A stretch of 64,000 nt of DNA from a virus, in IMG/VR virus record IMGVR_UViG_3300032315_000747, positions 17,900 through 81,899 of that record, one strand, 5' to 3'. Each line of letters opens with the position of its first letter. Position 1 is the stretch's first letter. Positions 1-17,773 of this stretch are shown here, one piece after another. The notes below the pieces were generated by a model. That model made no database searches. It saw only the letters and a program-made list of their open reading frames with translations, and was not told where the DNA came from. Both the position numbers and the translations under genes were made by a program.

Positions 1-67
1 AAGCCAGTGAAGAATCAATGGGAAATTGATTTAGCACGATTTAAAGAACAGGCGACAACCAGTCGTC

Positions 68-832
68 GTGGATAAAGTAGTTGTCATCGTAACGGGAGGC
101 TTCGATCCACTGCATAGCGGGCATTTGAGTTATATCAATGCAGCGCGTGCATTGGGTGACATTCTCGTTGTGGGAATCAATAGTGATGAGTGGCTGATAC
201 GTAAGAAGGATCGGCCATTCATGTCACACCAAGAAAGATCGGCTATCATGGCAGCTTTACTGGGTGTAGATTATGTGTGGACATTCGATGATGCTGATGG
301 TAGCGGCAAAGATGCTATTCGAATAGCAAGAAATATGTTTCCAGATTCGAAACTAATCTTTGCTAACGGAGGCGACCGTACCATCGAAAATATTCCTGAA
401 ATGGATATAGATGATGACAACATCGAATTTGCATTTGGTGTTGGCGGCAGTAACAAAGCCAATAGTTCAAGTCAGTTACTACACGAATGGAAAGTACCCA
501 AAACAAATCGTAGCTGGGGATATTATCGAGTATTACACGACCAGCATCCCGGAGTGAAACTCAAAGAACTTGTAATCGATCCGGGCAAATGTTTGAGTAT
601 GCAGCGGCACAAAAATAGATCAGAACTGTGGTTTGTTGCAGAAGGGATAGCTCTGCTAAAAAGCCAAACTGATGTTCCAACAGTACATGAACGGTTTGAT
701 ATTATCAATGTTCCCAAAGATAGCTGGCACCAACTGGCAAACGCATCATCGGACAGTCCATTAAAGATCATCGAGATTCAATATGGCACAGAATGCAACG
801 AAGAAGACATAGAGAGAAAACATAATGCGTAA
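68..832 (+). CDS. Cytidylyltransferase (HIGH-motif) fused to a cupin/mannose-6-phosphate isomerase-like domain
   Basis: N-terminal TGGFDPLHSGH (HxGH) and ANGGDR motifs; C-terminal RSWGYY...LSMQRH..RSELW...EIQYG, typical of the type II PMI cupin. Confidence 0.85.
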   Translation: MDKVVVIVTGGFDPLHSGHLSYINAARALGDILVVGINSDEWLIRKKDRPFMSHQERSAIMAALLGVDYVWTFDDADGSGKDAIRIARNMFPDSKLIFANGGDRTIENIPEMDIDDDNIEFAFGVGGSNKANSSSQLLHEWKVPKTNRSWGYYRVLHDQHPGVKLKELVIDPGKCLSMQRHKNRSELWFVAEGIALLKSQTDVPTVHERFDIINVPKDSWHQLANASSDSPLKIIEIQYGTECNEEDIERKHNA

Positions 833-2012
833 CCTATTCTACATGGGGCTTGAGGCCTATACCGCTCGTTACACACTACAACTTACAGACTGGAACAGTC
901 GGGTATTTCATGACCGTAAACTCAAGGTCGTTTATGTTCCCGGAACAACTCTAGGCAACAGTCAAAAGATTGTTGTCGGACAAGTACTAGATGCACATGG
1001 TCGCAGCTATTTTGCCATGAGTCAGATGATGAATCTGGTAGCGATGATGCAAAAAGGTGAAATTACTAACGAAGACGTAATCTACTTCGAAGATATGTTT
1101 CAGCCGGGCTTTGAGAGTCTTGGGTATATCTTGAATCAGGTCCCCGATAAGCTACGTCCGCGTATCTTTGTTCGTTGTCTTGCACAGACTATCGACCCAG
1201 ATGACTTTGTTCATGTCTGGGGCATGAACAAGTGGATGGGAAATTACGAACATATGGTTAATGACATCGTTTCTTTCTCTAAGGGTGCAATTCTCGCAAC
1301 CAGTGAAGAAATGGTCATGAACATGAAGATTGCAGGTTGGACTGCTCCTATCTATAATATCTCAGGACTTGCTTTTGGCAAGTATGAAGTTATTGGGCGA
1401 GTAGAAAAGATTAAGGCTTTTACTGATCGTCGTATGCGAGTTGTGTTCTCGGCCAGATGGGATCAGGAGAAGCAGCCAGACTTCTATATGGATTTGATTG
1501 AAGCATGGAGTGAAAGATATCCCAGTAAAGATGTTGAGTTCGTTGTTTGTAGTGGTAGTTCACTGAAGTCAAACAATGAAAGTTACATGGTCCGTACTCG
1601 TAAGATGCAAGATAGCGGCAAGCTGACTATCTACGAAAACCTCGAAAAGGATCAGTATTACGAGATTCTTAACGATAGTCGTGTAGTCTTCAATTGTGCA
1701 TTGCAAGATTGGGTCTCAAACACGGTAAGCGAAGCAGATGCATTAGGTTGTAACGTACTTTATCCAGCGTATCGCTCGTTCCCTGAAACATTCGCAAATG
1801 ATCATGAACGTCTCTATACGCCATGGTCGTTAGAAGATGCAGTCAATAAGTTGGATCCTCTTCTCAGGAAACCGCATCCAAATATGGGTAAAATCAGTGA
1901 CTGGACTAATAGTACTGTTGATCGCATCGTTGATATCATTGAAGGTAAAGGTGAAGGGTGGTTACGCATGTCAACTGACTATCGTAAGTATTCTAAGGAA
2001 GCAAAGTACTAA
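825..2012 (+). CDS. GT-B glycosyltransferase
   Basis: [11 protein letters not shown] and [10 protein letters not shown] motifs resemble the GT4 nucleotide-sugar binding domain; overlaps both neighbours (operon). Confidence 0.7.
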
Positions 2013-3076
2013 TGCATATTGAAAACGAAATTCTGCTAGACTTTGGTGATGTGTTGATTCGGCCAAAAAGGTCAACACTAGCTAGCCGTAAAGAAGTACA
2101 TCTGCATCGAACCTATACATTTAAGCATAGCGGTCATGTTTGGAATGGTATCCCTATTATAGCTGCTAACATGGATGGTGTAGGCACCGTCGAAATGGCT
2201 TTGGCATTGCAAACTCAAGACATATTTACTTGCTTAACCAAAGATAATATTGAAATTCCCCATGGGTTAAATTCTGATAGATATGCTATCAGTACAGGCA
2301 CAAGTGATAAAGATTTTGAACGCTTGCAAATGCTATTAAACAAGCATCCTTATATTCATTTTATCTGCATTGATGTTGCTAACGGATATAGCGAACACTT
2401 TGGTGACTTTGTTGCTAAGGTTAGAAAAGAATACCCCGCTCATACAATCATTGCGGGCAATGTTGTTACCGCAGATATGACACAGGAGTTAATTTTACGT
2501 GGAGCAGATATTGTTAAGGTGGGCATCGGGCCTGGGAGCGTTTGCACAACTCGTATTCAAACTGGCGTTGGTTATCCTCAGCTTAGTGCTATTGTGGAGT
2601 GCAGTGATGCTGCTCACGGTCTTGGTGGCCATATCATCGCCGACGGAGGCTGCACCTGTCCAGGAGATGTTGCCAAGGCGTTCGGCGCCGGTGCAGATTT
2701 CGTGATGCTAGGTGGAATGCTTGCTGGCCACGACGAGGGCGGCGGAAAAATATTCAAACGCTGGGTAAAAACTGAATATTCTAGTGAACTAGGTAAACCC
2801 ATTCGCGATTGCGAATACCGAGTACAGTTCTATGGTATGAGTTCCGATTCGGCTATGCATAAGCATCACGGCAGTGTTGCTGACTATCGTAGTAGTGAAG
2901 GACGCACGGTAGAGATTCCTTATAAGGGTCCGGTAGAAGATACTGTTAAGGATATTCTGGGCGGGCTCCGTAGTACTTGCACTTACGTCGGAGCAAGTGA
3001 ACTTAAGCACCTTAGCAAATGCACAACCTTTGTTCGGGTAAATAAACAATTTAATGATATATACGTCAAGCGATAA
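2012..3076 (+). CDS. guaC: GMP reductase
   Basis: [66 protein letters not shown]. Confidence 0.95.
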
Positions 3077-3158
3077 ATAATAATGTAGCACAAAGGCTAC
3101 AAAGTGAGAGTGACCTCTCCGTTGGGTATTAACGTTAGATACTTTGAAAGGAAAACAT

Positions 3159-3839
3159 ATGTCTTTTAATAAAAATAAATGTGACCCCGAATTGGGTCGT
3201 CTCGTTCACGAACATCTTGTAAAGATGGGTGTTGAAACTCCCGCTATCGAAAACAATCTCAGCAGAACAGACAAAATTGAGATCATTGAACGCAAGTTTA
3301 AGGATATCATGGAAACCTTAGGGCTTGACCTAAGTGATGATAGTCTTATTGAAACTCCGAAGCGTGTTGCCAAAATGTATGTAGGTGAAATCTTTTGGGG
3401 CCTCGACTATGAAGCATTTCCCAAGTGTACTACAGTTGACAACAAGATGAAGTACAACGAGATGGTCGTTGAACGCAACGTGAATGTGCAATCTAACTGT
3501 GAGCATCATTTTATTGTAATCTCCGGTCTTGCTACTGTAGCATATGTACCAAACGAAAAGGTTCTTGGATTAAGCAAGATCAATAGGATAGTGGAATATT
3601 TCAGTAAGCGGCCTCAGATTCAAGAACGTCTTACTGAACAGGTATTTCACACTCTTTGCTACATTCTCGAAACCCAAGATGTTGCAGTCATGATTGATGC
3701 CCAGCACTATTGTGTCAAGTCACGCGGTGTAGAAGATACAGGGTCAAGCACGGTAACGTGTAAGCTGGGTGGTGGATTCAAGTCTGACCCTGCTGCTCGT
3801 GCAGAGTTTCTTAGTATCGCTCGCATGGGTAAGTGCTAA
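3159..3839 (+). CDS. folE: GTP cyclohydrolase I
   Basis: ETPKRVAKMY, CEHHF, GLSKINRIVEYFSKRPQIQERLT, HYCVKSRGV; ATG 3159 follows a GAAAGGA RBS. Confidence 0.95.
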   Translation: MSFNKNKCDPELGRLVHEHLVKMGVETPAIENNLSRTDKIEIIERKFKDIMETLGLDLSDDSLIETPKRVAKMYVGEIFWGLDYEAFPKCTTVDNKMKYNEMVVERNVNVQSNCEHHFIVISGLATVAYVPNEKVLGLSKINRIVEYFSKRPQIQERLTEQVFHTLCYILETQDVAVMIDAQHYCVKSRGVEDTGSSTVTCKLGGGFKSDPAARAEFLSIARMGKC

Positions 3840-4069
3840 CGGAATTTATCATATCAATGGCCCAGCTAGACCTTCACAGCGTTAAGCACCAGGATGTTGA
3901 TCTGTTAGTGGAGAACTTCGTTCTAATGAACCAGAATGAGTTCCCACTAACTATCATCTGCGGTAACAGCATTAAAATGATTAAGCTGGTTGAGAATACG
4001 ATAAATAGGATTGGATGCGATGCAACTATGATCAGACATGGATTCATAGTTATTCAGCGTATCAAATAA
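3833..4069 (+). CDS. Small Smr-like protein
   Basis: LDLHSV and LTIICGNS resemble Smr LDLHG/IITGxG motifs; true start may be ATG 3857. Confidence 0.4.
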   Translation: MLTEFIISMAQLDLHSVKHQDVDLLVENFVLMNQNEFPLTIICGNSIKMIKLVENTINRIGCDATMIRHGFIVIQRIK

Positions 4070-4071
4070 AC

Positions 4072-4112
4072 AGCGGTCTTGGCGTCATTCCCGCTTGACA
4101 AACTCTGCCGCC
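4072..4112 (+). promoter_or_regulatory. Candidate H-type pseudoknot (preQ-type riboswitch-like) in the queD leader, overlapping a possible sigma70 promoter
   Basis: Stem AGCGG/CCGCT; loop GGCG complementary to downstream CGCC; TTGACA-N17-TATGCT is also present. Confidence 0.4.
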
Positions 4113-4141
4113 TATGTTATGCTAATATAGGAGATTAAAAT

Positions 4142-4645
4142 ATGGCAAATCAACCAGTAAGTTACAAGTACACGAGTACTAAAGAATATCATGATTCGTT
4201 TCCGTGCGCCTATCGTCAGTGGCGTGCTGATAGTCATTGTAATAACATTCATGGCTACAGTTTTTCCATGAAGTTCTACTTTGGAACCAACGACCTCGAT
4301 GTCCGCAACTGGTGTGCAGACTACGGTGGTATGAAGGAACTCAAGAAGATTCTAGAAGATCAGTTTGATCATACCTTGCTTGTCGCAGAAGATGATCCTG
4401 AACTTGAGATGTTCAAGTTGCTACAAGAAAAGAAGATGGCTAAGTTGACGATCCTTCCCAAGTTGGGTTGCGAGAGTCTTGCTGATATGCTATACAAGTA
4501 TATCAATGGTGTCTACATTCCTGAAATGTGGGGACAAGGTGAAGCCGATCGTCTTTGGTGTTACAGGGTTGAGGTAAGAGAAACGCAAAGTAATATGGCC
4601 TTTCGTGAAGGCCACAGATGTTGGAATGAGGATCTGTTAGGGTAA
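4142..4645 (+). CDS. queD: 6-carboxy-5,6,7,8-tetrahydropterin synthase
   Basis: HCNNIHGYS (C-x3-HG) metal motif, FDHTLL, VEVRET; lies between folE and queE. Confidence 0.9.
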   Translation: MANQPVSYKYTSTKEYHDSFPCAYRQWRADSHCNNIHGYSFSMKFYFGTNDLDVRNWCADYGGMKELKKILEDQFDHTLLVAEDDPELEMFKLLQEKKMAKLTILPKLGCESLADMLYKYINGVYIPEMWGQGEADRLWCYRVEVRETQSNMAFREGHRCWNEDLLG

Positions 4646-4651
4646 GACGTA

Positions 4652-5200
4652 ATGGGCAAAGAGATACATTTCAACAACGTCAATGAACTTGTTCATAACA
4701 TCATAAGACAGATTACGGTAGACCAGTTTCGACCTGATTATGTTGTAGGCATTACCAGAGGAGGATTAGTTCCTGCTCTAATGATTAGCCATTATTTGAA
4801 TATTCCAATGCATACACTAAAAGTAAGTTTGCGTAGCGATCCCCCTGATACCGAACAAAATGCCTGGATGTCCGAAGATGCATTTGGGTATGTTTCGTCG
4901 GATGATCGCCCTATCATAAAGAGTCGTTGGGATACAAAAAAGCGTAAAAATATCCTGATCGTGGATGACATCAACGATAGCGGCGCGACCTTTGATTGGG
5001 TTAAACAAGATTGGATTAATAGCTGCTTCCCGGATCAAAAAGAAGCTTGGGATTCAGTCTGGAATCATAATGTGAAGTTTGCTGTTTTGGTAGATAACGA
5101 AGCAAGTGACTTTGGAGGTATCGACTACTTCGGGGAATCTATAAACAAGATTGAAGATCCGGTCTCTATTCGATTTCCTTGGGAGCGGTGGTGGAAGTAA
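4652..5200 (+). CDS. Type I purine phosphoribosyltransferase (Gpt-like)
   Basis: VVGITRGGLVPA, PRPP-binding ILIVDDINDSGAT, C-terminal FPWE. Confidence 0.9.
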   Translation: MGKEIHFNNVNELVHNIIRQITVDQFRPDYVVGITRGGLVPALMISHYLNIPMHTLKVSLRSDPPDTEQNAWMSEDAFGYVSSDDRPIIKSRWDTKKRKNILIVDDINDSGATFDWVKQDWINSCFPDQKEAWDSVWNHNVKFAVLVDNEASDFGGIDYFGESINKIEDPVSIRFPWERWWK

Positions 5201-5610
5201 TGAATGTCGTTCCATTGCGAGACGATCTAATGGTTCAGCAACAGATCACATCTGAGTGGCAACATATGGTAGGGGTGATCATGTTGAACCAGACTCATAG
5301 ATTGTTGGTAAAAAGGGTCCTTCCTGAATTCTTATCTAGATGGGACACATGTGAGAAGTTCTTGGCAAGTACGAGCGAAGAAGTATACGAAGTTATACGT
5401 CCACTTGGACTAGTCGCCGTTCGGGAAAACCGAATTAGAAGGATGTCCAATCAATACTTGACATGGGACAAGAGTGATGCTACAGTTCTTTATGGTATAG
5501 GAAAGTATGGCAGTGATAGTTATGAGATTTTCTTTAAGAACAACTATGCTGTACAACCTACTGATAAAGAATTAGTGCGATACTTAAGAGAAGAATGCAT
5601 AGATGCATAA
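5200..5610 (+). CDS. HhH-GPD DNA glycosylase, MBD4-like
   Basis: IMLNQT, IRPLGL and LYGIGKYGSDSY (cf. MBD4 LHGIGKYGNDSY), catalytic Asp in PTDKEL. Confidence 0.8.
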   Translation: MNVVPLRDDLMVQQQITSEWQHMVGVIMLNQTHRLLVKRVLPEFLSRWDTCEKFLASTSEEVYEVIRPLGLVAVRENRIRRMSNQYLTWDKSDATVLYGIGKYGSDSYEIFFKNNYAVQPTDKELVRYLREECIDA

Positions 5611-5776
5611 TAAAATTGTGAATTATATAGATGCTAAGAATGGTAGGCATTTGTATTCTATTCCTTTCTACGATCCAGATAACTTATATGAAGGTTGGTT
5701 TTACAAATCGGGCGACAAATATAAGACATATGAAGAATATCTAAAAGAACGAGACAATGACGCAAATCAAGGTTAG
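5603..5776 (+). CDS. Small hypothetical protein (57 aa, not in ORF track)
   Basis: ATG 5603 to TAG 5776, MHNKIVNYIDAKNGRHLYSIPFYD...; fills the gap and overlaps both neighbours. Confidence 0.5.
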   Translation: MHNKIVNYIDAKNGRHLYSIPFYDPDNLYEGWFYKSGDKYKTYEEYLKERDNDANQG

Positions 5777-6611
5777 TGAACTATTTTATTCTATTCAGGG
5801 TGAAGGCAGGTATCAAGGCGTACCTAGCATTTTCCTAAGAACGTTTGGCTGCAACTTCACGTGTGGAGGATTTGGCATGCCTAAGGGAGAAACATCTGTT
5901 GAACGGAAAAAGGTCGACCCGAAAGTTTACAAAGATTACGATTCTCTCCCGCTCGTCACCACTGGTTGCGATTCTTACGCCTCATGGGACCCTCGCTTCA
6001 AGCATCTCTCTCCTAGCAAGGACATTGATACCATTGTTGATGACATCATAGAATTACTACCGTTTAAAGAATGGCGAGAAGAACATCTTGTCATCACCGG
6101 AGGAGAACCACTACTTGGATGGCAGCGAGCTTTCCCAAAACTCTTGAGTCATCCTAAGATGAAGGGTCTCAAAGAGATTACTTTTGAGACTAATGGTACA
6201 CAGGAACTTTCACCTGAGTTCGCACACTATCTTGAAGACTGGAGCTGGCCAGAAGTATATCCGGGATTTGAACGAGAAATTACTTTTAGCGTCAGTCCTA
6301 AGTTAAGTTGTTCCGGTGAGTCTCATAAAAGTGCGATCAAACCTAAGGTTGTGCGTGAATATGAGGAATTTGGCTATGCATACCTCAAGTTTGTGATTGC
6401 TACAGAAGAAGATGCGCAGGAAGCTCTTGAAGTAACTAAGCTCTATCGTGATGAAGGTTTTGAAGGGCCTGTATATTTCATGCCCGTCGGTGGAGTAGAG
6501 AGTGTATATCAATTGAACAACCGTACAGTTGCCGAGTTAGCGATGAAGTATGGGATCAGATATAGTGACAGGCTTCACATTCCTCTTTGGGGTAATCGAT
6601 GGGGAACGTAA
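5757..6611 (+). CDS. queE: 7-carboxy-7-deazaguanine synthase (radical SAM)
   Basis: ELFYSIQGEG, FLRTFGCNFTC...GCDSYASW (expanded Cys motif), ITGGEPLL, ETNGT, SVSPKL, RLHIPLWG. Confidence 0.92.
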   Translation: MTQIKVSELFYSIQGEGRYQGVPSIFLRTFGCNFTCGGFGMPKGETSVERKKVDPKVYKDYDSLPLVTTGCDSYASWDPRFKHLSPSKDIDTIVDDIIELLPFKEWREEHLVITGGEPLLGWQRAFPKLLSHPKMKGLKEITFETNGTQELSPEFAHYLEDWSWPEVYPGFEREITFSVSPKLSCSGESHKSAIKPKVVREYEEFGYAYLKFVIATEEDAQEALEVTKLYRDEGFEGPVYFMPVGGVESVYQLNNRTVAELAMKYGIRYSDRLHIPLWGNRWGT

Positions 6612-6620
6612 AGGTAAAAT

Positions 6621-7964
6621 ATGAATACCTATAACAAACGTATTGGATTTCTAGTCAGTTCTCAGACCTTGATTCCGCACGGTGGAATAGGACAGTTCGC
6701 TAAGAGTTTCTGCGAATTGATGGATAGTCATGGAATTAAAGTAGATATCATCACCGACAAAGCTCCGCAAGGACTCAGTACCGAGTTCTTAGAATCATTC
6801 GATGCTACCGTTATTTATCCAGACATCCCACTCAAGTATACTGATCATAGTGCTATCTTTATGTATGAAGATAGTTTCTGCTATGAAAGAATGGCTAACT
6901 TCCGTAATGCTATCGTTAAAGCATTCACTACCAACATCTATGACGTACTAGTATGTAATACCTATGAAGCGATTCAAGTCGCAAGTACTATGGGACTTGA
7001 CGAATGTGTACAGGTCATCGCATATACTCATCTTGAGAGTCAAATTTTCAAAGATACAAAGAATCCATTCTTTCATAGCACTAATGAGATGATGCGATTA
7101 CAGTTGCAGATGAATAATATCACTATCGGTACGCAAAGCAAGTTCAATGAACTTCAGTTCGATGGTATGGCTACGCATCTTCCTATTCCAGTGACTGAGA
7201 AAGAATTACTAAATCAGTACGTCAACCCCAGGGAAGGTGTGTTGTTCATCGGACGTTGGGAAGAGGGAAAGAATCCTGAGTTGTTTATCGATCTGATCGA
7301 GCAGACTAAATTGCCAGCTAAGGTAATGACAAGTGCAACTGGTGCTAAGAAGTTCGAAGAACGATTGAAAAAGATCAATGCTACTTATGAGATCAAGGTG
7401 GGCATCATCGGCAAAGAGAAGGTAGACTTCATCACCGGTGCAAGAGTAGCATTTAATCCTAGCACAGTTGAAAGCTATGGCATGGCGTTCTATGAGCAAA
7501 CTATGCAATTGCCTACTTTCTGTTTGGAGAATCAACGCTGGACCCGAAACTTTTCTTCTCAGTTTTTCTTCGAAACCGACAAGAAAAACATGGCAGATGA
7601 TGTACAGCAGACATATGAGATGTTCGATACCGCCGAATCATGGTACGGTAAGGGAGCATTGGTAAATGCGAATCAGATCGAAAGCCAAGTGTTTCACAAG
7701 TGGAATCAGTGTTTCAATTCATTCAAACCAAAAACGTCTAATAGCAATACAGCTAAGATTTGTAAAGAAACTTCTATTAAGTATGCAGATTTTATCGATG
7801 GGTTGAATCGCGGTCTTCTGTGCATCGATGATATCAAGTCGGTGTTGATGAACAAGAATAAGTTTAGAGTGATTTATACAGATACTAATACATATCTGAC
7901 TAAGGAACCTAACTTTGAACCATCTGAAGAAATGGTTGGATTAGGATTATTCGAGGGACTATGA
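6621..7964 (+). CDS. GT4-family glycosyltransferase
   Basis: PHGGIG, LFIGRWEEGKNP, PSTVESYGMAFYE (E-x7-E) motifs. Confidence 0.8.
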   Translation: MNTYNKRIGFLVSSQTLIPHGGIGQFAKSFCELMDSHGIKVDIITDKAPQGLSTEFLESFDATVIYPDIPLKYTDHSAIFMYEDSFCYERMANFRNAIVKAFTTNIYDVLVCNTYEAIQVASTMGLDECVQVIAYTHLESQIFKDTKNPFFHSTNEMMRLQLQMNNITIGTQSKFNELQFDGMATHLPIPVTEKELLNQYVNPREGVLFIGRWEEGKNPELFIDLIEQTKLPAKVMTSATGAKKFEERLKKINATYEIKVGIIGKEKVDFITGARVAFNPSTVESYGMAFYEQTMQLPTFCLENQRWTRNFSSQFFFETDKKNMADDVQQTYEMFDTAESWYGKGALVNANQIESQVFHKWNQCFNSFKPKTSNSNTAKICKETSIKYADFIDGLNRGLLCIDDIKSVLMNKNKFRVIYTDTNTYLTKEPNFEPSEEMVGLGLFEGL

Positions 7965-8812
7965 AAAAGATATTAGTAACAGGATGTTCCGGCTATATTG
8001 GATCACATCTTTGTAAATTGCTTGAGAAAGAGTACGAAGTATATGGACTTGATATCAGGCAGCCATTGCATCCAGTCAAGGAATTCTTTCAGCTTGACAT
8101 TAATCGTCCGTTCAACATTGAACAAGAATTCGATTCAGTAGTGCATCTTGCAGCACTTGTAAATGTAGGCGAGAGCGAAAGTATGCCTATTCAGTATTAT
8201 ATTACTAATCTGAATGGGACGATGAATGTAATCAATAAAGTGAAGACACGGAACTTTATTTTTGCGTCGACCGGTGCAGCAGATCATTGCGAGAGTGCAT
8301 ATGGAATCTCGAAACGAGCAGCAGAAGATGTAGTTCGGGAATATTGTACCCAGCATAAGACTATGCCATATACAATTTTTAGATTCTATAATGTGATCGG
8401 TTCATCAGGTTATCCTCCTACTAACCCAGACGGATTGATGTACAATCTGATGAAGGCTGCTGACACCAAAGAGTTTACTGTTTTCGGTGATGATTATGAT
8501 ACCCCAGACGGTACCTGCATTCGAGATTATGTTCACGTAGATGAAGTATGTGAAGCAATCAAGATGGCTATCGAGCAACCTGCCAATAAAGTAGAATGTT
8601 TAGGGCATGGTGTAGGATATTCGGTACTGGAAATCTTTGAGAAATTTGAAATGGTAAACGCAGAAACCATTTATTCTGATGATGACGAAGAAGGCATCAA
8701 GATAAAGATTGGACCCCGCAGAAAAGGGGACATCTCTTGTAGCGTACTAGAAGAAGTGTCCCCTTATATGAAAAATTTGTATTCGTTTACCGAGTTGTTG
8801 AAACTTTACTAA
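7961..8812 (+). CDS. NAD-dependent epimerase/dehydratase (GalE-like)
   Basis: TGCSGYIG, HLAALVNVGES, YGISK (YxxxK), DGTCIRDYVHV. Confidence 0.9.
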   Translation: MKKILVTGCSGYIGSHLCKLLEKEYEVYGLDIRQPLHPVKEFFQLDINRPFNIEQEFDSVVHLAALVNVGESESMPIQYYITNLNGTMNVINKVKTRNFIFASTGAADHCESAYGISKRAAEDVVREYCTQHKTMPYTIFRFYNVIGSSGYPPTNPDGLMYNLMKAADTKEFTVFGDDYDTPDGTCIRDYVHVDEVCEAIKMAIEQPANKVECLGHGVGYSVLEIFEKFEMVNAETIYSDDDEEGIKIKIGPRRKGDISCSVLEEVSPYMKNLYSFTELLKLY

Positions 8813-10041
8813 TGCATCAATAGAAACGTATTAAGAACGTCATTACGGTTAGCAGAGTCATCTCCGTCTCCCGGTTTAACAATGACATTATACTTACCCT
8901 TTTCATTACTGACTGGTCTCTTCATCATCTCGTCATATGTCAATATCGAATCGGGCTTTACGCTATATTTAGCAGCTAGTCGAGCCTTCAGAGCATTGAT
9001 CGAAGATTGATCTTTATATACGAGCTTACCTTCCACCCGATCAAGAACGTCCTTGAATAATACTTCAGGAACAACTCGGCTATTCTTAGTTGTTGCGAAA
9101 TCGATCTGTTGTTCTTCTTTGGGCTTCGCGCCCATCGAGTAATTCATCTTGAAATTGTTGGGTGCTTTACCTTGAGCGACATTTGCTAATTTAGTATACG
9201 CATAGAAAGATACGTCAGGATACTTTTTAGCTAAGTCATACGCATACTTAAGATATTCAGGAGAGAAGAAATCACCAGCATCATGCCAACGAATGATGAG
9301 TTTAGTTTTTGTGCCTTTTTTGTTATCGATCTTTGTTAACTTTTTACTTTGTGCTTCGATCTCGTTTCCTAGCATATCCATGAATCCTTGGGGATCGTTA
9401 TACAAGAAGTTCAGTAGCTTAGATTGTTCGAGTGATGGGCTAGTCCACATGATATAACCACCCTTCATCGCATAGCAATATGTCTGACATGCACCGGCGC
9501 CCGGACAAGTATCAATGATTACGAACTCGCCGGTATCTTCATCGACTGCCAGTCCTTTCAGAGCAGGAAGACCAATATTGTAGAACGCGCTGGCGGTACC
9601 ATCACTGTGTTGCATCTTTTCGTTCTGCTTGAGAACCTTCGCCGGACGCTTGGTGATCATAGCTCTTAGCTTTTCTAGATCATATTCTTTGTTTTCTTCA
9701 TCGACGATAGGAACATTCTTATTATGAATGTATGGCATCGTGAACTTATCTTGCTTAGTCTTTTCACTCTTGCGAATCTTACCGCCTGCTTTATTGACTT
9801 TGCCTGTATCGGTACCTAAGGTTCTACTTAAATATTTAGTTAGTTCATCTTTTGGAAAAGGTCTTGCTGGCGCAGCTAATTTCGCTTCATCCACTTCTAC
9901 TTCTTGTGGTTCGACCCCTGCACCGAGAAGGAAATTCTCAAGAGACATCGCCGGCAACCCAAACCCACCCGAAACAGGTGTTTTTTGCTTGACGGGCCGA
10001 GAATTTTCACTTATGATATCTAAGATGTTACGAATATCCAT
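8809..10041 (-). CDS. GP88-like Fe-S protein with capsid-targeting-like N-terminus
   Basis: CPGAGACQTYCYA, RWHDAGDF, FYAYTK motifs; late promoter ATAAATA at 10065-10071 (-). Confidence 0.65.
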   Translation of the reverse strand: MDIRNILDIISENSRPVKQKTPVSGGFGLPAMSLENFLLGAGVEPQEVEVDEAKLAAPARPFPKDELTKYLSRTLGTDTGKVNKAGGKIRKSEKTKQDKFTMPYIHNKNVPIVDEENKEYDLEKLRAMITKRPAKVLKQNEKMQHSDGTASAFYNIGLPALKGLAVDEDTGEFVIIDTCPGAGACQTYCYAMKGGYIMWTSPSLEQSKLLNFLYNDPQGFMDMLGNEIEAQSKKLTKIDNKKGTKTKLIIRWHDAGDFFSPEYLKYAYDLAKKYPDVSFYAYTKLANVAQGKAPNNFKMNYSMGAKPKEEQQIDFATTKNSRVVPEVLFKDVLDRVEGKLVYKDQSSINALKARLAAKYSVKPDSILTYDEMMKRPVSNEKGKYNVIVKPGDGDDSANRNDVLNTFLLMH

Positions 10042-10073: not shown

Positions 10074-11099
10074 ATGAATGATGGCATCAAACGAATTGGT
10101 TTCGCATGTAAGTTTGTAGAAATCAACACTAAGGGTGAGATCGTTAGTGTCGACGGATTCAACACAGGCGGCACTACACTCGCCTGGGCAAAACGTCAGA
10201 ACAACTCACATGCTGTCGAAGAAAAGATCATGGATGTCGCAAAGCGCAACATCCTAAACACTCACGCACTCGTCAAAAAAATTGCGACTCTTCCTATCGA
10301 ACTACGCATGTTGCGCATCACCAGCGATATGTTGAGTTTCTACACACATCCCGATTATCATTATTTCTGGTCGCGACAAGATGTGCAAGACAGTCTAGCA
10401 CGTTGGATGGCTCCGATCGGTGAGACTGCTCGTAAGCACAATGTTCGTCTCTCATTTCACCCTGATCAATTTGTAGTCCTTGCTAGTGATCGTGAAGAAG
10501 TGGTAGAAAACAGTATCAGAGAATTCGAATATCACGCTGACATGGCACGTTGGATGGGCTATGGTAAAACCTTTCAGGATATGAAGATCAATGTTCATAT
10601 CAGTGGTCGTCAAGGGCCCGACGGTATCAAGAAGGTAATGTCTCGACTAAGCCCCGAGGCTCGTAATTGCATCACTATCGAGAATGACGAGATGACTTGG
10701 GGTATCGATAGCAGTCTAGAACTTGCTGATACCTGCGCTCTCGTACTGGATATCCATCATCATTGGATCCGGACCGGTGAATATATCGAAGCCACTGATG
10801 ATCGTATCAATCGTATCATTGACAGTTGGCGAGGTGTACGTCCTGTCATTCATTACAGTGTAAGTCGTGAAGATGTACTTCCCGGACATTGTAAGATGAC
10901 TTGTCCCGAATTAACTACACTACTAGAGCAAGGTCATAAGAAGCAAAAGCTACGTGCCCATAGCGAGTACTATTGGAACAAGGCTGTCAATGATTGGGCT
11001 ATGACTCACAACGAATGGTCCGACATCATGTGCGAGAGTAAAGCGAAAAACCTAGCTAGTTTCAAATTATATGATACATATATTAAGAAAGGTAATTAA
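10074..11099 (+). CDS. uvsE: UV DNA damage endonuclease
   Basis: IGFAC, LRITSD, RLSFHPDQF, IENDE, VLDIHHH, HYS, AHS, DIMCESKAK. Confidence 0.9.
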   Translation: MNDGIKRIGFACKFVEINTKGEIVSVDGFNTGGTTLAWAKRQNNSHAVEEKIMDVAKRNILNTHALVKKIATLPIELRMLRITSDMLSFYTHPDYHYFWSRQDVQDSLARWMAPIGETARKHNVRLSFHPDQFVVLASDREEVVENSIREFEYHADMARWMGYGKTFQDMKINVHISGRQGPDGIKKVMSRLSPEARNCITIENDEMTWGIDSSLELADTCALVLDIHHHWIRTGEYIEATDDRINRIIDSWRGVRPVIHYSVSREDVLPGHCKMTCPELTTLLEQGHKKQKLRAHSEYYWNKAVNDWAMTHNEWSDIMCESKAKNLASFKLYDTYIKKGN

Positions 11100-11521
11100 T
11101 GTTTAAAGCAATCAAAGACTGGATCAGTCCTCCTCCCCCACCTATCCCGGTTCCTGAACCCGAAGTAAAGAAAGAGCCCAAGGCTAAGAAGCCTGAATTA
11201 ACTCCTAAGGAAAAGGCAACACTTGCAGGTGAACCCTATATCTCTATTTTGAGTGTGGAGCTCGATCCTAACGATATCAACAATGGATCATTCGACTTAG
11301 ATTGGAATGATAAGTTCGTGCTTAACCTAGTCAAGCAGGGATATAAGTTCTCACCTAAGGATACTGATTCAATGATCGTTGATCGCTGGTTCCAGACTGT
11401 ATGCAGGAATATCGCTTTAGAAGTGTATGAGCAAGAGATTGCTGATCCCGAGAAGCGAGAATCTGAAGTGCGAGTCATTCAACAGCGTGATATTGGTGGC
11501 GGATTTACTGAGGTAAGTTAA
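11099..11521 (+). CDS. Hypothetical protein
   Basis: 140-aa ORF with coupled stop/start to both neighbours. Confidence 0.7.
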   Translation: MFKAIKDWISPPPPPIPVPEPEVKKEPKAKKPELTPKEKATLAGEPYISILSVELDPNDINNGSFDLDWNDKFVLNLVKQGYKFSPKDTDSMIVDRWFQTVCRNIALEVYEQEIADPEKRESEVRVIQQRDIGGGFTEVS

Positions 11522-12099
11522 TGAAAAAAATGTTTGACCGACCAATTGAACTTGATGCTCCGGACTTCATAATTCCATTACGAAATATTCAAAGTCCCAC
11601 GGACATATATAATTTTTGCAGAACCAACAATATTTCTCATTATGGATATGGGTTTAGGTTTGCTCGTAACAGTTATTTAACGAAACAGCTTAAATTTGGA
11701 TTTAGTGCCCCAGAACCAAATGCAAAGGCTATTCAAAAAGGTGAACGGTTGGTTCGGCAAATTGCTTGGCTTCCAGGCTGGAATATTAATGTGTCAAGTT
11801 CTCATGGATTTGAATTTTGGCACGGTTGCACCTCTTTGATTAATCAAGAAATTCTCCCCAAAGATACAAATTATACTGATATTGAAATTGCAATTTGGTC
11901 GGTTGACAAACGTACTAACATCTCGGGGTACCCTTTAACTAGAAAAGAACTTGCAGCATATACTGAAAGCGAGTTGTGTGAACAGTACGTCGAACATCAC
12001 GGCTGTCTCCCGCATTTAAACATTGTAGATCCTACCCTAAATAAAACATATCGGGGATTGAGAAAAAGCACCTTTTTAGACTTGTTTGAAATCGGATAA
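11521..12099 (+). CDS. Hypothetical protein (possibly GIY-YIG-like)
   Basis: YGYGF...LKFGFS...ERLVRQ loosely resembles a GIY-YIG core. Confidence 0.45.
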   Translation: MKKMFDRPIELDAPDFIIPLRNIQSPTDIYNFCRTNNISHYGYGFRFARNSYLTKQLKFGFSAPEPNAKAIQKGERLVRQIAWLPGWNINVSSSHGFEFWHGCTSLINQEILPKDTNYTDIEIAIWSVDKRTNISGYPLTRKELAAYTESELCEQYVEHHGCLPHLNIVDPTLNKTYRGLRKSTFLDLFEIG

Positions 12100-12168
12100 A
12101 AAGACTTGACATCTATCTATTAAGTGCGTGTATTAAAAATTGAACACAGAAATGAAAGTTTAATTGAT

Positions 12169-12540
12169 ATGCAAATTCGTCCTACTTGTATTAATCACGG
12201 CTGCAATCGTCTAGTTGCTAATGACGGAAGTCGTTGGAGGCCTACCTGTTATCGATGCCATAAAGCAGGGTATGGGAAAGGTACTTTTGCTTTCGGCGTT
12301 ACCCCATTTCGAACCGGTTATTGCACTAACGCTGATAGTCATTTGGGTTTTCCGTGCGCTATTGATTACAAAAAGGCACCGTGGGTAATAGGCAAAACGC
12401 ATATTGATCATATTGACGGTAACCATTTAAATAATATTCTAGAAAACGTGGTTGAACTTTGTCCTCTCTGTCATCAATACAAAGGTATGCTTACCGGTGA
12501 CTTTAAGAATCAAGGCGTGTATCACTACAACAAAAAATAA
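12169..12540 (+). CDS. HNH endonuclease
   Basis: IDHIDGNHLNN...ELCPLCH plus N-terminal Cys pairs. Confidence 0.8.
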   Translation: MQIRPTCINHGCNRLVANDGSRWRPTCYRCHKAGYGKGTFAFGVTPFRTGYCTNADSHLGFPCAIDYKKAPWVIGKTHIDHIDGNHLNNILENVVELCPLCHQYKGMLTGDFKNQGVYHYNKK

Positions 12541-12598
12541 TGGTTGACATTCAGCCTAATCCTTGCTATAATATGCGTATAAATAGAGAAAGCCTCAT

Positions 12599-13630
12599 AT
12601 GAAATATGCACTGATCGACACGGCTAATACCTTCTTTCGCGCTAGGCACGTTGCGTCTCGTAATACCGACACGTGGGAAAAAGTAGGAATGGCGATGCAC
12701 CTTACATTATCTTCTGTCAATCAAATGGTACGTAAGTTTGGCATCGATCATGTCGTGTTCTGTCTCGAGGGTCGTTCTTGGCGTAAGGACTTCTACAAGC
12801 CATACAAGGCGAATCGAGTAAAGACTGACGCAACTGAGGCTGAGATCGAAGAGAACAAGATGTTCTGGGATACGTATGAAGAGTTTACTACGTTCATTCG
12901 TGAGCGCACAAACGCTAGCGTACTACGTCATCCTGCTGCTGAAGCAGATGACCTCATCGCACGTTTCATTGCGTTGCATCCCGAAGACGAGCATTTCATT
13001 ATCTCGTCTGACACTGACTTTGTTCAACTGATCGCACCTAACGTAAAGCAGTACAACGGTGTTGCTGGTCAGTTGATCACACTTGAGGGTTACTTCGATG
13101 ATCGTGGTAAGCCTGTCAAAGATAAGAAGACTAAGGAACCTAAATTGCTTGAGGATCCTGAATATCTTCTATTCAAGAAGATCATTCGCGGTGACGCAAC
13201 TGACAACGTGTTCTCTGCATACCCAGGTGTGCGCGAGAAGGGTTCTAAGAACACTATCGGTATTCAGGAAGCATATGCAGATCGCATTAAGCAAGGCTTC
13301 AACTGGAATAATTTTCAATTGCAACGTTGGACTGATCACGATAACGTTGAGCATCGAGTTAGAGATGATTATGCACGCAATCGTACCTTGATCGATCTAA
13401 CTGCACAACCGCAAGAAATTAAAGATGCCGTCGACCAATCAATATGTACAGGAGTAAAGACTACCCTTACTTCTCAGGTCGGTATTCATCTACTTCGTTT
13501 TTGTGCAAAATACGAACTAACAAAAATAAGTGAACAGGCCGAGACTTATTCTAAGTGGCTCAACAATGCCTATTCCGGATCTCTTATTGAGAAACAATCT
13601 CCAACAAAGGAAACACAACATGACGACTGA
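12599..13630 (+). CDS. rnh: T4-type RNase H / 5'-3' flap exonuclease
   Basis: LIDTAN, SWRKDFYKPYKANR, EADDLI, ISSDTDFVQL, RGDATDNV; TTGACA...TATAAT promoter upstream. Confidence 0.9.
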   Translation: MKYALIDTANTFFRARHVASRNTDTWEKVGMAMHLTLSSVNQMVRKFGIDHVVFCLEGRSWRKDFYKPYKANRVKTDATEAEIEENKMFWDTYEEFTTFIRERTNASVLRHPAAEADDLIARFIALHPEDEHFIISSDTDFVQLIAPNVKQYNGVAGQLITLEGYFDDRGKPVKDKKTKEPKLLEDPEYLLFKKIIRGDATDNVFSAYPGVREKGSKNTIGIQEAYADRIKQGFNWNNFQLQRWTDHDNVEHRVRDDYARNRTLIDLTAQPQEIKDAVDQSICTGVKTTLTSQVGIHLLRFCAKYELTKISEQAETYSKWLNNAYSGSLIEKQSPTKETQHDD

Positions 13631-14078
13631 TCTGGTCGCAAAAACAATCGTTAAGGACCAATTTTGGATTGTTACAGATGGTACGAAAAAGGTAGGAAAC
13701 ATCGAAGCCAATAACTCTGGTTACGGTGTTCAACTCAACGGACATTCGTTTCAGTTTGATAATGCGGTCGAGTTAAAGAAAAAGACTAAGATCCGATTCG
13801 CCCCTATCAAGTCAGATAGTACAAAGATATCTCTGCCTTACCCTGAATATCCTACTCCAGCCAATGTATATAATTCAATATTTGACATCACGCGCGGCTT
13901 GCATCTGTTTACTACATCGATGAAGAGTAAGTGTTTACATGCTGCAGGATGGTTCCTATTAGAGCAGAACGGGGTCAAGACAGTCATGTTCTGCCCGAAG
14001 TATATTTTCATTCAACGTTACCCATATGAGGGTCCGTTTAAAACGGAAACTGAAGCTATTAATAAGATAAATATCTGA
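13620..14078 (+). CDS. Hypothetical protein
   Basis: ATG 13620 after AAGGA RBS. Confidence 0.7.
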   Translation: MTTDLVAKTIVKDQFWIVTDGTKKVGNIEANNSGYGVQLNGHSFQFDNAVELKKKTKIRFAPIKSDSTKISLPYPEYPTPANVYNSIFDITRGLHLFTTSMKSKCLHAAGWFLLEQNGVKTVMFCPKYIFIQRYPYEGPFKTETEAINKINI

Positions 14079-14080
14079 CG

Positions 14081-14290
14081 ATGTTTCATATCCGACGATT
14101 CATAGAAAAGATGGCAGTGGTCGAATCAAAGAACACTAAAGATGTGGTTATTCCTATCGCCGAAGCACGTGGATTGCGAGATGAGCTTACTAAGCTAGTA
14201 GCAGAACTATATGAGTACAGTAAGAAACATGATGAAGATCGAAAAAATGAAGTGTTTGAGATACAAATAAGAGGGGGTTCATTTAAATGA
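14081..14290 (+). CDS. Hypothetical protein
   Basis: ORF in a tightly packed operon. Confidence 0.65.
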   Translation: MFHIRRFIEKMAVVESKNTKDVVIPIAEARGLRDELTKLVAELYEYSKKHDEDRKNEVFEIQIRGGSFK

Positions 14291-14299
14291 ATGATCTAA

Positions 14300-14605
14300 A
14301 TGTCTAGAAATCAACCCAACATTTTGCTCGAACACGTAGATAGACAGACCTATAAATGTGATCAGATCGTAGAGGCTGCTGGAATATGGGCTGTATTTCT
14401 TGATGGTCAACCTATTAACCTCAAGTCATCACATTATCTCACTAACGATTCTGCTCCCAAATATAAAAAGACTAGTTTCTCAAATCCCGGTCATGCTAGG
14501 AATCTATGTCGCAAGTTGAATGCACAGTTTAAGACTGACAAGTTTACTGTTTGTTTTTTGAACCAAGGTAGAACGGTTTACCCAGAATCCATCACTGATG
14601 AGTAG
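14300..14605 (+). CDS. Hypothetical protein
   Basis: ORF in a tightly packed operon. Confidence 0.7.
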   Translation: MSRNQPNILLEHVDRQTYKCDQIVEAAGIWAVFLDGQPINLKSSHYLTNDSAPKYKKTSFSNPGHARNLCRKLNAQFKTDKFTVCFLNQGRTVYPESITDE

Positions 14606-15395: not shown

Positions 15396-15650
15396 ACAGT
15401 TTTTCAAACAGGCACTAGAGTTTTATCTCCGCGGATTGATAATCAATGGAGAGAATCAGGCTTTTATGCATCAAGCGATGTATTCACAGTCAAAGAAAAT
15501 TTTTAACCAAAAGACAGAGAAAGATAATTAAAAATGACCACTTATGAAGCAACTCGGCTAGCAAGTCGTGCTGGTAGTACTGTTATGGGTGCTATATGCG
15601 TATTTATGTTATTTGTTTTTACAAGTCTCGTATATTAAGGAGAAAATCAG

Positions 15651-15899
15651 ATGGACCTACCAGAAATAAAGTTTAACAAGACTGGATACGAGATTCGCAC
15701 TAACATTCTTGAAATGGCGAAAAATCTTGTCTCTGAAGAATACCATGCCAAATATATGGGATGGGAAATATCTCAGGAACGCGACCCGGTGACTAACCAA
15801 ATTGTTACTAAGGTCGCAGCTCCGGAATTTCCTGGACTTGACAAAGTCCTCGAGACCGCTGAAAAAATGTATGAATTCGTTAACTACAAGAAATCTTAA
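15651..15899 (+). CDS. Hypothetical phage protein
   Basis: AAGGAG RBS; YEIRTNILEMAK...AEKMYEFV. Confidence 0.7.
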   Translation: MDLPEIKFNKTGYEIRTNILEMAKNLVSEEYHAKYMGWEISQERDPVTNQIVTKVAAPEFPGLDKVLETAEKMYEFVNYKKS

Positions 15900-15911
15900 C
15901 AGAGAATCATA

Positions 15912-16127
15912 ATGCCTTCAGAAGTTCCTAGGTATCAACCAAGAGAGACTCATCAACGTCTGCTCGATCAACAAGGAAATACTCATCTTTCACTGTTGTC
16001 GAACGAAATTGCTTGGATGCCGAACAATAATTCTAGACGCATCCGTGATACCAAAATGTTTATCTCGGGTACAATTGTAGGTATTGTCGCAATTGTCGGC
16101 AGTCTTATGTTAATGATAGCTCGATGA
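15912..16127 (+). CDS. Small membrane protein
   Basis: C-terminal hydrophobic helix. Confidence 0.5.
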   Translation: MPSEVPRYQPRETHQRLLDQQGNTHLSLLSNEIAWMPNNNSRRIRDTKMFISGTIVGIVAIVGSLMLMIAR

Positions 16128-16372
16128 GTGATGTTCTAGGTACTATTGCTTCTCTACTCAGTAGGGCAGAACACGCTGAACTCATGGTGATGACTGCTCA
16201 ATATCGGATCAACGAATTAGAATCTATGTTGAACGCCAATATTGAGCAGTCTAATACTAACGAGCGAGCTAAAATCGTAGATTATTTGAAATACCATGAC
16301 CCAGCAGGTTGCTGGTGGAAAGAAATCGAAGCAGGGGAACATCTGAAATTAGCCTCGAATCAGATACTTTGA
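16124..16372 (+). CDS. Hypothetical protein
   Basis: ATGA overlap with the upstream gene. Confidence 0.55.
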   Translation: MSDVLGTIASLLSRAEHAELMVMTAQYRINELESMLNANIEQSNTNERAKIVDYLKYHDPAGCWWKEIEAGEHLKLASNQIL

Positions 16373-16400
16373 TTTTTTTAGCTATTTCGGACTAAAAAGG

Positions 16401-16438
16401 TTGACATTCTAAATCTCTTTTGCTATATTAAGTTATAA
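16401..16438 (+). promoter_or_regulatory. Early promoter repeat
   Basis: TTGACA...TTTTGCTATATTAAGTTATA, the same motif as at 27676, 27987, 29777 and 30269. Confidence 0.7.
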
Positions 16439-16459
16439 GCTGAGAAAAAGGAACTGAAC

Positions 16460-16747: not shown

Positions 16748-16763
16748 TTTATAATCCTGATCA

Positions 16764-17764: not shown

Positions 17765-17773
17765 ACCTTAAAG

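Follow-up and report, generated by a model that had tools for sequence, protein, structure and literature searches.

A predicted DpdA3/DpdL-type 7-deazaguanine DNA-modification operon with a conserved phosphoribosyltransferase and sugar genes on an uncultured viral contig

Complete replacement of guanine by 7-deazaguanines has been reported for the DNA of several phages. According to Table 1 of PMC10516641, about 30% of the nucleotides in phiST DNA are 2'-deoxy-7-deazaguanine (dDG), which equals all of its G, and the DNA of immuto_2-6A is fully substituted with fdPreQ1; 100% substitution is likewise reported for CP220 (PMC10516641). The DNA of PA5oct was described as resistant to restriction enzymes with G-containing sites (PMC12191111), and a jumbo-phage review notes a deazaguanine system in this phage and mentions phosphoribosyltransferases (PRTases) only in other systems (PMC7824862). 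DpdL was proposed as the decarboxylase of 7-carboxy-7-deazaguanine, CDG (Cui/Hutinet 2023, PMC10516641), DpdL systems working at the CDG stage being listed in sheet DS1 of the same paper, and full replacement of G by 7-deazaguanine was credited in print to DpdA3 alone, an enzyme whose activity has, according to that paper, never been reconstituted. Expression of dpdL and dpdA in E. coli gave no dDG, and the authors say that other enzymes may be needed (PMC10516641). In the present study, an operon was analysed that reaches from upstream into a window of 64,000 bases, namely bases 17900-81899 of the 81,899-bp viral contig IMGVR_UViG_3300032315_000747 of IMG/VR. Judged by its sequence, it is a 7-deazaguanine DNA-modification module of the DpdA3/DpdL type, as in phiST and PA5oct, because the CDG pathway, the DpdL signature and an enzyme of the tRNA-guanine transglycosylase (TGT) superfamily are all present.

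The contig is 23% complete by CheckV estimate (77% absent) and is probably a piece of an uncultured jumbo phage. Megablast of window bases 1-9000 against 50,697 phage records returned no match and thus no near-identical record. As the window starts at contig base 17900 and the gene string continues upstream of it on the same strand, the operon is interrupted by the window's edge; the window holds its 3' two-thirds, within the phage replication module. The first-pass annotation of the window had pointed out that no QueC, QueF, Tgt or DpdA was visible and had proposed a toyocamycin-like logic that dispenses with DpdA. The former statement is literally true of the window, but a DpdA3-like gene lies 0.7 kb upstream in the same gene string, and the DpdA-free logic fails, since a DpdA homologue outside the window was the very thing that had been named as speaking against it.

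Upstream of the window and on the operon's strand, DNA polymerase B (contig 11713-14418) is followed by two small genes and then by an open reading frame (ORF) of 529 aa (contig 15590-17179), which stops 720 bases ahead of the window's first base and is predicted to encode a DpdA3-like transglycosylase with a TGT fold. It matches PA5oct QCG76197.1 by tblastn (E 5e-70, 33% identity over 470 aa), and this protein is listed as DpdA3 in supplementary sheet DS1 of PMC10516641. An AlphaFold2 (AF2) model of the 529-aa protein, built with 28 homologues, reached a pLDDT of 84 and a pTM of 0.84; its top PDB matches were all tRNA-guanine transglycosylases, 4gh1 being the best (E 9e-8), and 192 matches reached E<=0.001. 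The motifs LGDSGGFQ (D104), GWAFGG (252) and TFDCASP (D317) follow one another just as LTDSGGFQ (D89), GYAVGG (213) and MFDCVMP (D264) do in E. coli Tgt, and hhalign against E. coli Tgt alone, although weak (11.6% probability), brought the GG and FDC motifs into register. Neither PF01702 (TGT) nor PF20314 (the DpdA4 family, DUF6610) matched anywhere in the 81.9-kb contig, and PF01702 was equally without a match in five related records; this blank result misleads, since the DpdA3-like protein has diverged beyond the reach of the PF01702 model. Similarly, the family profiles of the DpdA3-like protein and of the glycosyltransferase GT_A, treated below, found no meaningful match among PDB sequences, so that only the folds matched, and tblastn with phiST DpdA3 left the contig without a match (best E 0.29) and reached only 11 phage records.

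The proteins called DpdA3 in print appear heterogeneous. The proteins of PA5oct (L014:4224-5846), of the present phage and of BUCT-ZZ01 (UTS52034, L015:7700-8950) carry DSGG[FL]Q, whereas those of phiST (L004:25601-26380; 259 aa, without the DSGG motif) and RHph_I1_18 (L013:9083-10351) do not, and show no BLAST similarity to the others at E<0.01.

Directly downstream of the transglycosylase gene, an ORF of 158 aa on the same strand (contig 17244-17720) stops 179 bases ahead of the window's first base. It was matched to phiST CGPG_00067 (tblastn, E 1e-13), is 58-64% identical to its homologues in PA5oct, RHph_I1_18 and Phosso, and carries LGFPHRHIF, a motif type also seen in a family alignment of 57 rows. 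This corresponds to LxxxHRHxF, described as the DpdL signature that replaces the CxxxHGH of QueD (Cui, Hutinet et al., NAR 2023, PMC10516641). By these sequence features the protein is DpdL, a T-fold paralogue of QueD and a predicted decarboxylase.

Within the window, positions 68-8812 hold 11 ORFs of + orientation, most of which overlap or directly adjoin. Family calls on the window ORFs (Pfam, PHROGs, NCBIfam), together with strand, bear out the gene run of guaC, folE, queD, PRTase and queE with sugar genes that the first-pass annotation had described there. The CDG pathway is represented by FolE, a GTP cyclohydrolase I (3144-3839, +; PF01227 E 1e-60; NF006824 318.7 against a cut-off of 202), by a QueD-like synthase of 6-carboxytetrahydropterin (CPH4) with the CxxxHGY variant also seen in phiST QueD (4142-4645, +; PF01242 E 3e-17; phrog_2389 E 5e-37), and by a QueE-like radical SAM protein (5757-6611, +; phrog_2076 E 1e-59, with partial matches to the QueE models of NCBIfam). 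Pattern scans of 1-8812 detected no terminator-like sites on the + strand, the site counts not exceeding those of shuffles. As for QueC, the contig offers only a partial PP-loop match in the N-terminal part of a 339-aa protein (51034-52053, -), with 29.8 bits to Pfam QueC over model positions 4-64 and 25.8 to the NCBIfam QueC model, whose cut-off is 150.3. This N-terminal stretch resembles QueC, TilS or TtcA, and the protein is not a genuine QueC. Across six records, two of them complete and the present contig 23% complete, PF06508 (QueC) gave partial matches in two and a full-length match in none, a result in keeping with the DpdL systems of sheet DS1 in PMC10516641.

Between QueD and QueE lies a phage-type purine PRTase (4652-5200, +; PF00156 E 2e-12). 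Its nearest solved relatives are the archaeal purine/6-oxopurine PRTases 1vdm and 4z1o, and it stays under every NCBIfam equivalog cut-off (best NF006613, 34.1 bits against 138). At E<=0.001 the protein collection contains 5920 members of the family, and relatives are encoded in 512 of 599 pattern-matched viral stretches, hence on at least 512 viral contigs. With the PRTase as query, tblastn against the 50,697 phage records reached only 10, all belonging to the phiST group, the immuto group or BUCT-ZZ01. Both phiST and BUCT-ZZ01 carry que clusters, and immuto_2-6A is listed with one in sheet DS1 of PMC10516641. Cellular relatives with 30-35% identity, from Flavobacteriaceae and Sphingomonadales, are not accompanied by que genes; contigs binned into bacterial metagenome-assembled genomes hold the same phage-like module. 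Fused or longer forms linking the PRTase to a que enzyme were not found, which is weak evidence.

The surroundings of the PRTase were surveyed with hidden Markov models made from the gene clusters of the loci themselves in 87 viral loci (8 and 80 from two sets, one being common to both) up to 10 kb from the gene. Many of these loci end at contig ends, and in 26 of them the sequence extends 9 kb or more to either side of the PRTase (full-flank loci). QueE was found in 74 of the 87 loci, FolE in 66, GT_A in 54, QueD in 51, DpdL and the epimerase in 49 each, the DpdA3-like protein in 42, the second glycosyltransferase GT_B in 18, a helix-hairpin-helix (HhH) glycosylase in 17 and GuaC in 15. Among the full-flank loci, QueE and FolE occur in 25 each, GT_A and the epimerase in 24 each, DpdL in 23, the DpdA3-like protein in 20, QueD in 19 and GuaC in nine. 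Every hit of these ten neighbour families lies on the strand of the PRTase, and PRTase and QueE are co-oriented in all 74 loci that have both. The synteny of PRTase and que genes in relatives, which the first-pass annotation had named as a test, is thus confirmed by the presence of QueE and FolE in 25 of 26 full-flank loci. Where at least 9 kb upstream is available (46 loci), a DpdA3-like gene is missing inside the flank in 12; two of these (G001, G007) were checked in the whole record and both have one farther upstream. Altogether, a DpdA3-like gene is encoded in all seven PRTase records examined beyond the flank (the present contig, G001, G002, G003, G006, G007 and G008), and a 355-kb and a 236-kb relative are complete genomes among the records examined whole.

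In isolated phages the picture is more uneven. PF00156 is found in four of 14 complete genomes of phages bearing DpdL/DpdA3 (phiST, PA5oct, BUCT-ZZ01 and immuto_2-6A) and is absent from those of RHph_I1_18, ACP17, Ahp1, Phosso, BUDD, BCSR5, Bakedbeans, D479, MA9V-3 and BSP7, as well as from the CP220 genome. The gene order reads DpdA3 - GT_A - DpdL - x - short epimerase-like - PRTase - QueE in PA5oct (x being another gene), QueE - PRTase - x - QueD - FolE - GT_B - DSGG-bearing protein - DpdL - GT_A in BUCT-ZZ01, DpdA2 - GT_A - DpdL - QueE in ACP17 and DpdL - GT_A in Phosso. A MazG-family pyrophosphatase is encoded inside the module, next to QueD, in the complete 236-kb relative (G007:C1:188509-188658, locus L068), and a MazG-like gene adjoins DpdL in phiST; in the present contig no MazG was found.

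With E. coli Gpt, to which it is 19% identical, and with the archaeal 6-oxopurine PRTases 1vdm and 4z1o, the PRTase has in common a type I PRT fold, DDxxD[ST]G.T as PRPP loop and, in the C-terminal part, the motif [FQ]PW[ED] (FPWE in the phage protein, QPWD in Gpt). The D-[ST]-G turn of this loop has an Asp that does not vary within the family. It is aligned with the same Asp of Gpt, which we take to contact N7 of the purine, an atom absent from a 7-deaza base. Most family members contain an insert of 20-40 residues (NxWMxEDAFG...).

GuaC (2012-3076, +) is, by score, an ordinary equivalog of GMP reductase (NF003470: 533.1 against a cut-off of 397; TIGR01305: 518.6 against 492.15) and is 60% identical to Salmonella GuaC. 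The expectation that PRTase and guaC would co-occur with the que genes held for the former but for guaC only in a minority, namely 15 of 87 loci (nine of 26 with full flanks), and the GuaC/IMPDH family was found in none of five isolated phages checked, so that GuaC within a deazaguanine module is so far a feature of uncultured phages. Homologues of 40-46% identity are encoded by XacN1, Xoo-sp13, RAS14, CM1 and Cr30, and in the GuaC neighbourhoods of XacN1, RAS14 and Cr30 there are no que genes. Inside the module GuaC takes up three slots, GT_A-GuaC-FolE, PRTase-GuaC-QueE and FolE-GuaC-PRTase. In a GuaC tree, poorly resolved and with a single cellular outgroup, one rearranged copy was nested in the main clade with 99/97 support and no sign of independent captures was seen, which points to rearrangement and not to repeated capture as the cause of the changing positions. 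That GuaC is kept in the module through rearrangement argues for a link.

Of the sugar genes, GT_A (825-2012, +) ranks among the best conserved neighbours of the PRTase (54 of 87 and 24 of 26 loci, as given above). It is a GT4-like glycosyltransferase with a GT-B fold of two Rossmann domains according to its AF2 model (pLDDT 81.9), for which Foldseek retrieved MshA (3c4q) as best match with E 8e-11, followed by BshA, PimA and WaaG (E 1e-8 to 8e-11, TM 0.5-0.64); the Pfam match, to Glyco_trans_1_2, was barely above cut-off (25.2 against 25). Homologues adjoin DpdL in four isolated lineages, PA5oct, ACP17, Phosso and BUCT-ZZ01. At the 3' end of the operon follow GT_B, a second GT1/GT4-like glycosyltransferase (6621-7964, +; PF00534 E 9e-5, under cut-off) with 42% identity to BUCT-ZZ01 UTS52035, and a GalE-like NAD-dependent sugar epimerase/dehydratase of the SDR type (7961-8812, +; PF01370 E 3e-36; TIGR01179 galE E 1e-46, under cut-off). 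The 5' end is formed by a nucleotidyltransferase (CTP_transf_like, similar to RfaE domain II) fused to a cupin of the phosphomannose isomerase type (68-832, +; PF01467 E 2e-12, PF01050 E 5e-19; NCBIfam rfaE_dom_II E 2.5e-21, under cut-off), present in 39 of 87 loci. Published mass spectrometry on the DNA of a phage bearing GT_A was not found; PMC10516641 measured phiST-type and immuto phages, both without GT_A, and mentions ACP17 once, with no DNA data. A deazaguanine that bears a sugar is possible in the GT_A phages, and the conservation of the GT4-like transferase and the epimerase hints at it.

As for the role of these accessory enzymes, we tentatively prefer a reading in which PRTase and GuaC recycle the guanine expelled by base exchange, while the sugar genes modify the acceptor. 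FolE, QueD and QueE, going by their known families, would convert GTP to CDG, which DpdL would decarboxylate to 7-deazaguanine, and the DpdA3 homologue would swap DNA guanine for the latter, both of these steps having been proposed in print. The PRTase would serve as a guanine-type salvage enzyme that joins the released guanine to phosphoribosyl pyrophosphate (PRPP), and the GMP formed could return, as GTP, to deazaguanine synthesis; in phages that have it, GuaC would divert part of the GMP to IMP, and the GT4-like transferase, the epimerase and the nucleotidyltransferase-cupin would make a sugar and attach it, possibly to the modified base. A guanine PRTase would close the loop, since TGT-type exchange frees one guanine for every inserted base and each of these bases costs one GTP. 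Recycling is favoured because a transglycosylase is kept in every record examined beyond the flank, because the nearest solved relatives of the PRTase are purine/6-oxopurine enzymes and its cellular relatives stand without que genes, and because its invariant Asp is aligned with the Gpt residue presumed to touch N7. Furthermore, the PRTase is shared by phiST, with dDG as its final base, and immuto_2-6A, with fdPreQ1; what these phages would have in common is the expelled guanine. That CP220 and 10 of 14 isolated phages do without it would be expected if host Gpt or Hpt can substitute.

A number of observations weigh against recycling. In the PRTase family Asn takes the place of the Lys of Gpt 'FAKP'. 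In addition, the Trp in the family motif 'WIxFPWE', equivalent to that of Gpt 'WIEQPWD', is Ser in this phage (Ser, Ala or Leu in this phage plus its two closest relatives); both are presumably base-contacting positions in Gpt, and the substitutions may mean an altered base recognition. The gene stands among FolE, QueD and QueE and not next to DpdA3, and GuaC is awkward here, since a GMP reductase wastes the GTP precursor of deazaguanine. The operon also mirrors the whole enzyme set of tubercidin synthesis, where TubE, annotated as a purine PRTase, couples CDG and not 7-deazaguanine to PRPP (PMC6112128). The MazG in the module of the complete relative and the MazG-like gene beside phiST DpdL hint at manipulation of the nucleotide pool, and DpdA3 activity that has never been reconstituted, the failure of dpdL and dpdA to yield dDG in E. 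coli (PMC10516641) and a contig of which only 23% is at hand count on the same side. Possible, though in our view less likely than recycling, is a nucleotide route like that of tubercidin, in which the PRTase joins CDG or 7-deazaguanine to PRPP and DpdL acts as decarboxylase on either the base or its nucleotide; 7-deaza-dGTP for the phage B-family polymerase would then be supplied by host kinases together with ribonucleotide reductase, DpdA3 would be left with only residual G or some other role, and FolE with GuaC (and MazG in some relatives) would deplete G nucleotides. Such a route is suggested by the enzyme-for-enzyme parallel with tubCBA/tubE/tubF/tubD and the precedent of TubE acting on CDG and PRPP (PMC6112128), and by the lack of dDG with DpdA3 and DpdL in E. 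coli, where other enzymes may be needed according to the authors (PMC10516641). The place of the PRTase between QueD and QueE, with which it is always co-oriented, its occurrence in phiST and immuto_2-6A, but not CP220, among the three phages with reportedly full substitution and the MazG genes of G007 and phiST fit it too, as does the departure of the PRTase family from Gpt at the two positions assumed to contact the base. Nevertheless, every relative sequenced far enough has kept an exchange enzyme of TGT fold, its motifs intact, which would be odd if a polymerase suffices; the fully substituted CP220 and 10 of the 14 isolated DpdL/DpdA3 phages lack PF00156, guanylate kinase was found in none of five related records, PRTase-que fusions, for what this weak evidence is worth, did not turn up, and the Asp presumed to contact N7 is invariant. 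GuaC fits no better here than in recycling, because its tubercidin-like role would lead to 7-deaza-IMP, for which downstream enzymes were not found. PRTase-made 7-deaza-GMP would be possible, whereas the 7-deaza-A and 7-deaza-I nucleotides suggested at first are unsupported: PurA-like proteins (PF00709) and UbiD (PF01977) were each found in none of the five records, two of them complete (lyase, Nudix and transporter genes were not searched), and GuaC is confined to 15 of 87 loci. A composite scheme, which we regard as unlikely, would have 7-deaza-dGTP made as a nucleotide by PRTase and DpdL and inserted by the polymerase, with FolE and GuaC (MazG in some phages) starving the cell of G, DpdA3 mopping up remaining G or swapping at the nucleotide level, and the GT4-like transferase, epimerase and nucleotidyltransferase adding a sugar; if true, the product would be a glycosylated 7-deazapurine, for which there is as yet no description from any DNA.

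Quite improbable is the view that PRTase and GuaC are general nucleotide-pool genes of large phages, rebalancing G towards A for a genome of 42% GC and unrelated to the modification. The GuaC homologues of XacN1, Xoo-sp13, RAS14, CM1 and Cr30, three of them inspected and seen to lie apart from que genes, would suit it, and so would the restriction of GuaC to 15 of 87 loci; yet the 26 full-flank PRTase loci hold QueE in 25, FolE in 25 and DpdL in 23 cases, all co-oriented, the PRTase reaches no phage record outside the phiST group, the immuto group and BUCT-ZZ01, and GuaC stays in the module despite rearrangements. Hardly credible, finally, is a free 7-deazapurine nucleoside in the manner of toyocamycin or tubercidin, possibly glycosylated, that would act as an antimetabolite or signal. 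The gene content does resemble the actinomycete clusters, and MshA and BshA, the best structural matches of GT_A, act on small acceptors, but a DNA/RNA-type transglycosylase and DpdL belong to the same gene string, PurA-like and UbiD proteins are missing from the five records as stated, and the DNA of PA5oct is itself modified at G (PMC12191111). The string is flanked by DNA polymerase B and a 5'-3' exonuclease, and an antimetabolite role, which the first-pass annotation had considered, is unlikely for genes embedded in a replication module.

The accessory enzymes matter for the questions whether full substitution takes place before or after replication, whether the expelled guanine is recycled and whether phages of the PA5oct type contain a sugar-bearing deazaguanine, a base that would be relevant to how phages withstand restriction and to the defence nucleases by which hypermodified DNA is sensed. 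In this respect the PRTase, the GT4-like transferase and the epimerase, and GuaC in a subset, are candidates for the 'other unknown enzymes' of the authors of PMC10516641.

The remaining ORFs of the operon are small and had been passed over in the first-pass annotation. An 80-aa ORF downstream of DpdL, of which only the 3' end lies in the window (contig 17732-17974; window 1-75, +), is without a family match and occurs in 48 of 87 loci, always co-oriented; a 78-aa ORF (3833-4069, +) is likewise without a match in Pfam, PHROGs and NCBIfam and occurs in 15 of 87 loci. Between PRTase and QueE, a 143-aa ORF (5179-5610, +) encodes a homologue of MBD4-type HhH-GPD mismatch glycosylases, as the glycosylase domain of MBD4 was matched over residues 19-135 by phmmer against PDB (4ew4, E 2e-17); GIGKYGxDSY is conserved, and the gene has the same position in 17 of 87 loci. 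It was considered as an alternative base-exchange enzyme and rejected on account of this homology. The glycosylase may repair T or U opposite modified G, or counter host sensors of modified DNA.

Downstream, a GP88-family protein (8809-10041, -; PF17338, otherwise from actinophages) is convergent with the operon's end. It had been considered as a hidden DpdA and was dropped, as its matches were confined to hypothetical proteins of actinophages and 12 of 13 loci have it on the opposite strand. Next to it comes a UvdE-type UV-damage endonuclease (10074-11099, +), followed by an ORF of 140 aa (11099-11521, +) that occurs in 68 of 87 loci, has no family match and falls into an unnamed viral cluster only in ESM Atlas, by the 5'-3' exonuclease (12599-13630), and by an ORF of 182 aa (13530-14078, +) found in 43 of 87 loci, also without a family match. 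Farther along the window, ClpX, Hsp20, ClpS and ClpP are encoded in one stretch (22064-27547, +), and an A-type Fe-S carrier, two GNAT acetyltransferases and an Fe/Mn superoxide dismutase in another (37198-39797, -), to which metal and oxidative-stress set a ferritin/Dps-like protein upstream of the window may be added (contig 3408-3851, +). A third stretch, with genes of translation and signalling type (56610-62316, -), comprises a PTH2 peptidyl-tRNA hydrolase, a cREC_REC receiver domain, a PP-loop ATPase similar to TilS-N (60283-60960) and an AdoMet-decarboxylase-like protein. The GC content is 0.48-0.50 at 30000-34000 and about 0.42 elsewhere, and at about 32.5 kb the coding strand changes from + to - and the cumulative GC skew peaks.

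Compared with the DpdA3/DpdL system of phiST and the predicted one of PA5oct, the operon shares FolE, QueD with CxxxHGY, QueE, DpdL with LxxxHRHxF, a DpdA-family enzyme and an adjoining DNA polymerase, and with PA5oct in particular the order DpdA3 - GT_A - DpdL - ... - PRTase - QueE. Those two systems have no QueC, and in the present contig, 23% complete, none of full length was found. The chemistry measured for phiST and the resistance of PA5oct DNA to enzymes with G in their sites (PMC12191111) lend the assignment indirect experimental support. The operon differs from phiST in that the latter has neither GT_A nor GuaC and has its PRTase next to ribonucleotide reductase, at a distance of about 18 kb. 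It differs from the account in PMC10516641 by the PRTase, GuaC, GT4-like transferase and epimerase, which are not mentioned there: the main text contains the terms 'phosphoribosyl', 'PRTase' and 'glycosyl' zero times, and in the supplement 'phosphoribosyl' is limited to an HHpred hit of a MazG-like protein to PRA-PH, while 'phosphoribosyl' is equally absent from PMC6884629. More generally, no paper was found that treats a PRTase, a GMP reductase or a glycosyltransferase as part of the deazaguanine clusters of phages, in a search that did not cover subscription papers and bioRxiv supplements; two papers that had seemed pertinent deal with NAMPT. With the DpdA1/DpdA2 systems of phage 9g, CAjan and Salmonella dpd, which work with preQ0, the operon would have in common that an enzyme of the TGT superfamily inserts a base of the queuosine pathway into DNA; those systems, however, use QueC and preQ0 and substitute 0.1-30% of G (PMC10516641), whereas here the enzyme is undetected by PF01702 and QueC was not found in full length.

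The resemblance to the tubercidin and toyocamycin clusters of Streptomyces, with which the first-pass annotation had started, was borne out and becomes stronger with DpdL as a parallel to the decarboxylase. Both have GTP cyclohydrolase I, CPH4 synthase, CDG synthase, a purine-type PRTase, a GMP-reductase homologue and decarboxylation at the CDG stage, so that FolE/QueD/QueE, PRTase, GuaC and DpdL would parallel TubC/A/B, TubE, TubD and TubF (PMC6112128), and in the tubercidin pathway as described there a decarboxylase and then a GMP-reductase homologue act after the TubE step. TubE belongs to the same superfamily as the phage PRTase. Unlike the tub cluster, however, the phage has as candidate decarboxylase a T-fold paralogue of QueD and not UbiD, and its gene string includes a nucleic-acid transglycosylase, the presence of which serves as a criterion to exclude secondary-metabolite clusters (preprint 10.64898/2026.04.15.718813). 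Because of this transglycosylase, and as PurA-like proteins and UbiD were each found in none of the five records, the operon does not qualify as a tubercidin/toyocamycin cluster. What is new here is a variant of a known modification system with a conserved accessory set, consisting of PRTase, GT4-like transferase and epimerase, and sometimes of GuaC and the MBD4-like glycosylase.

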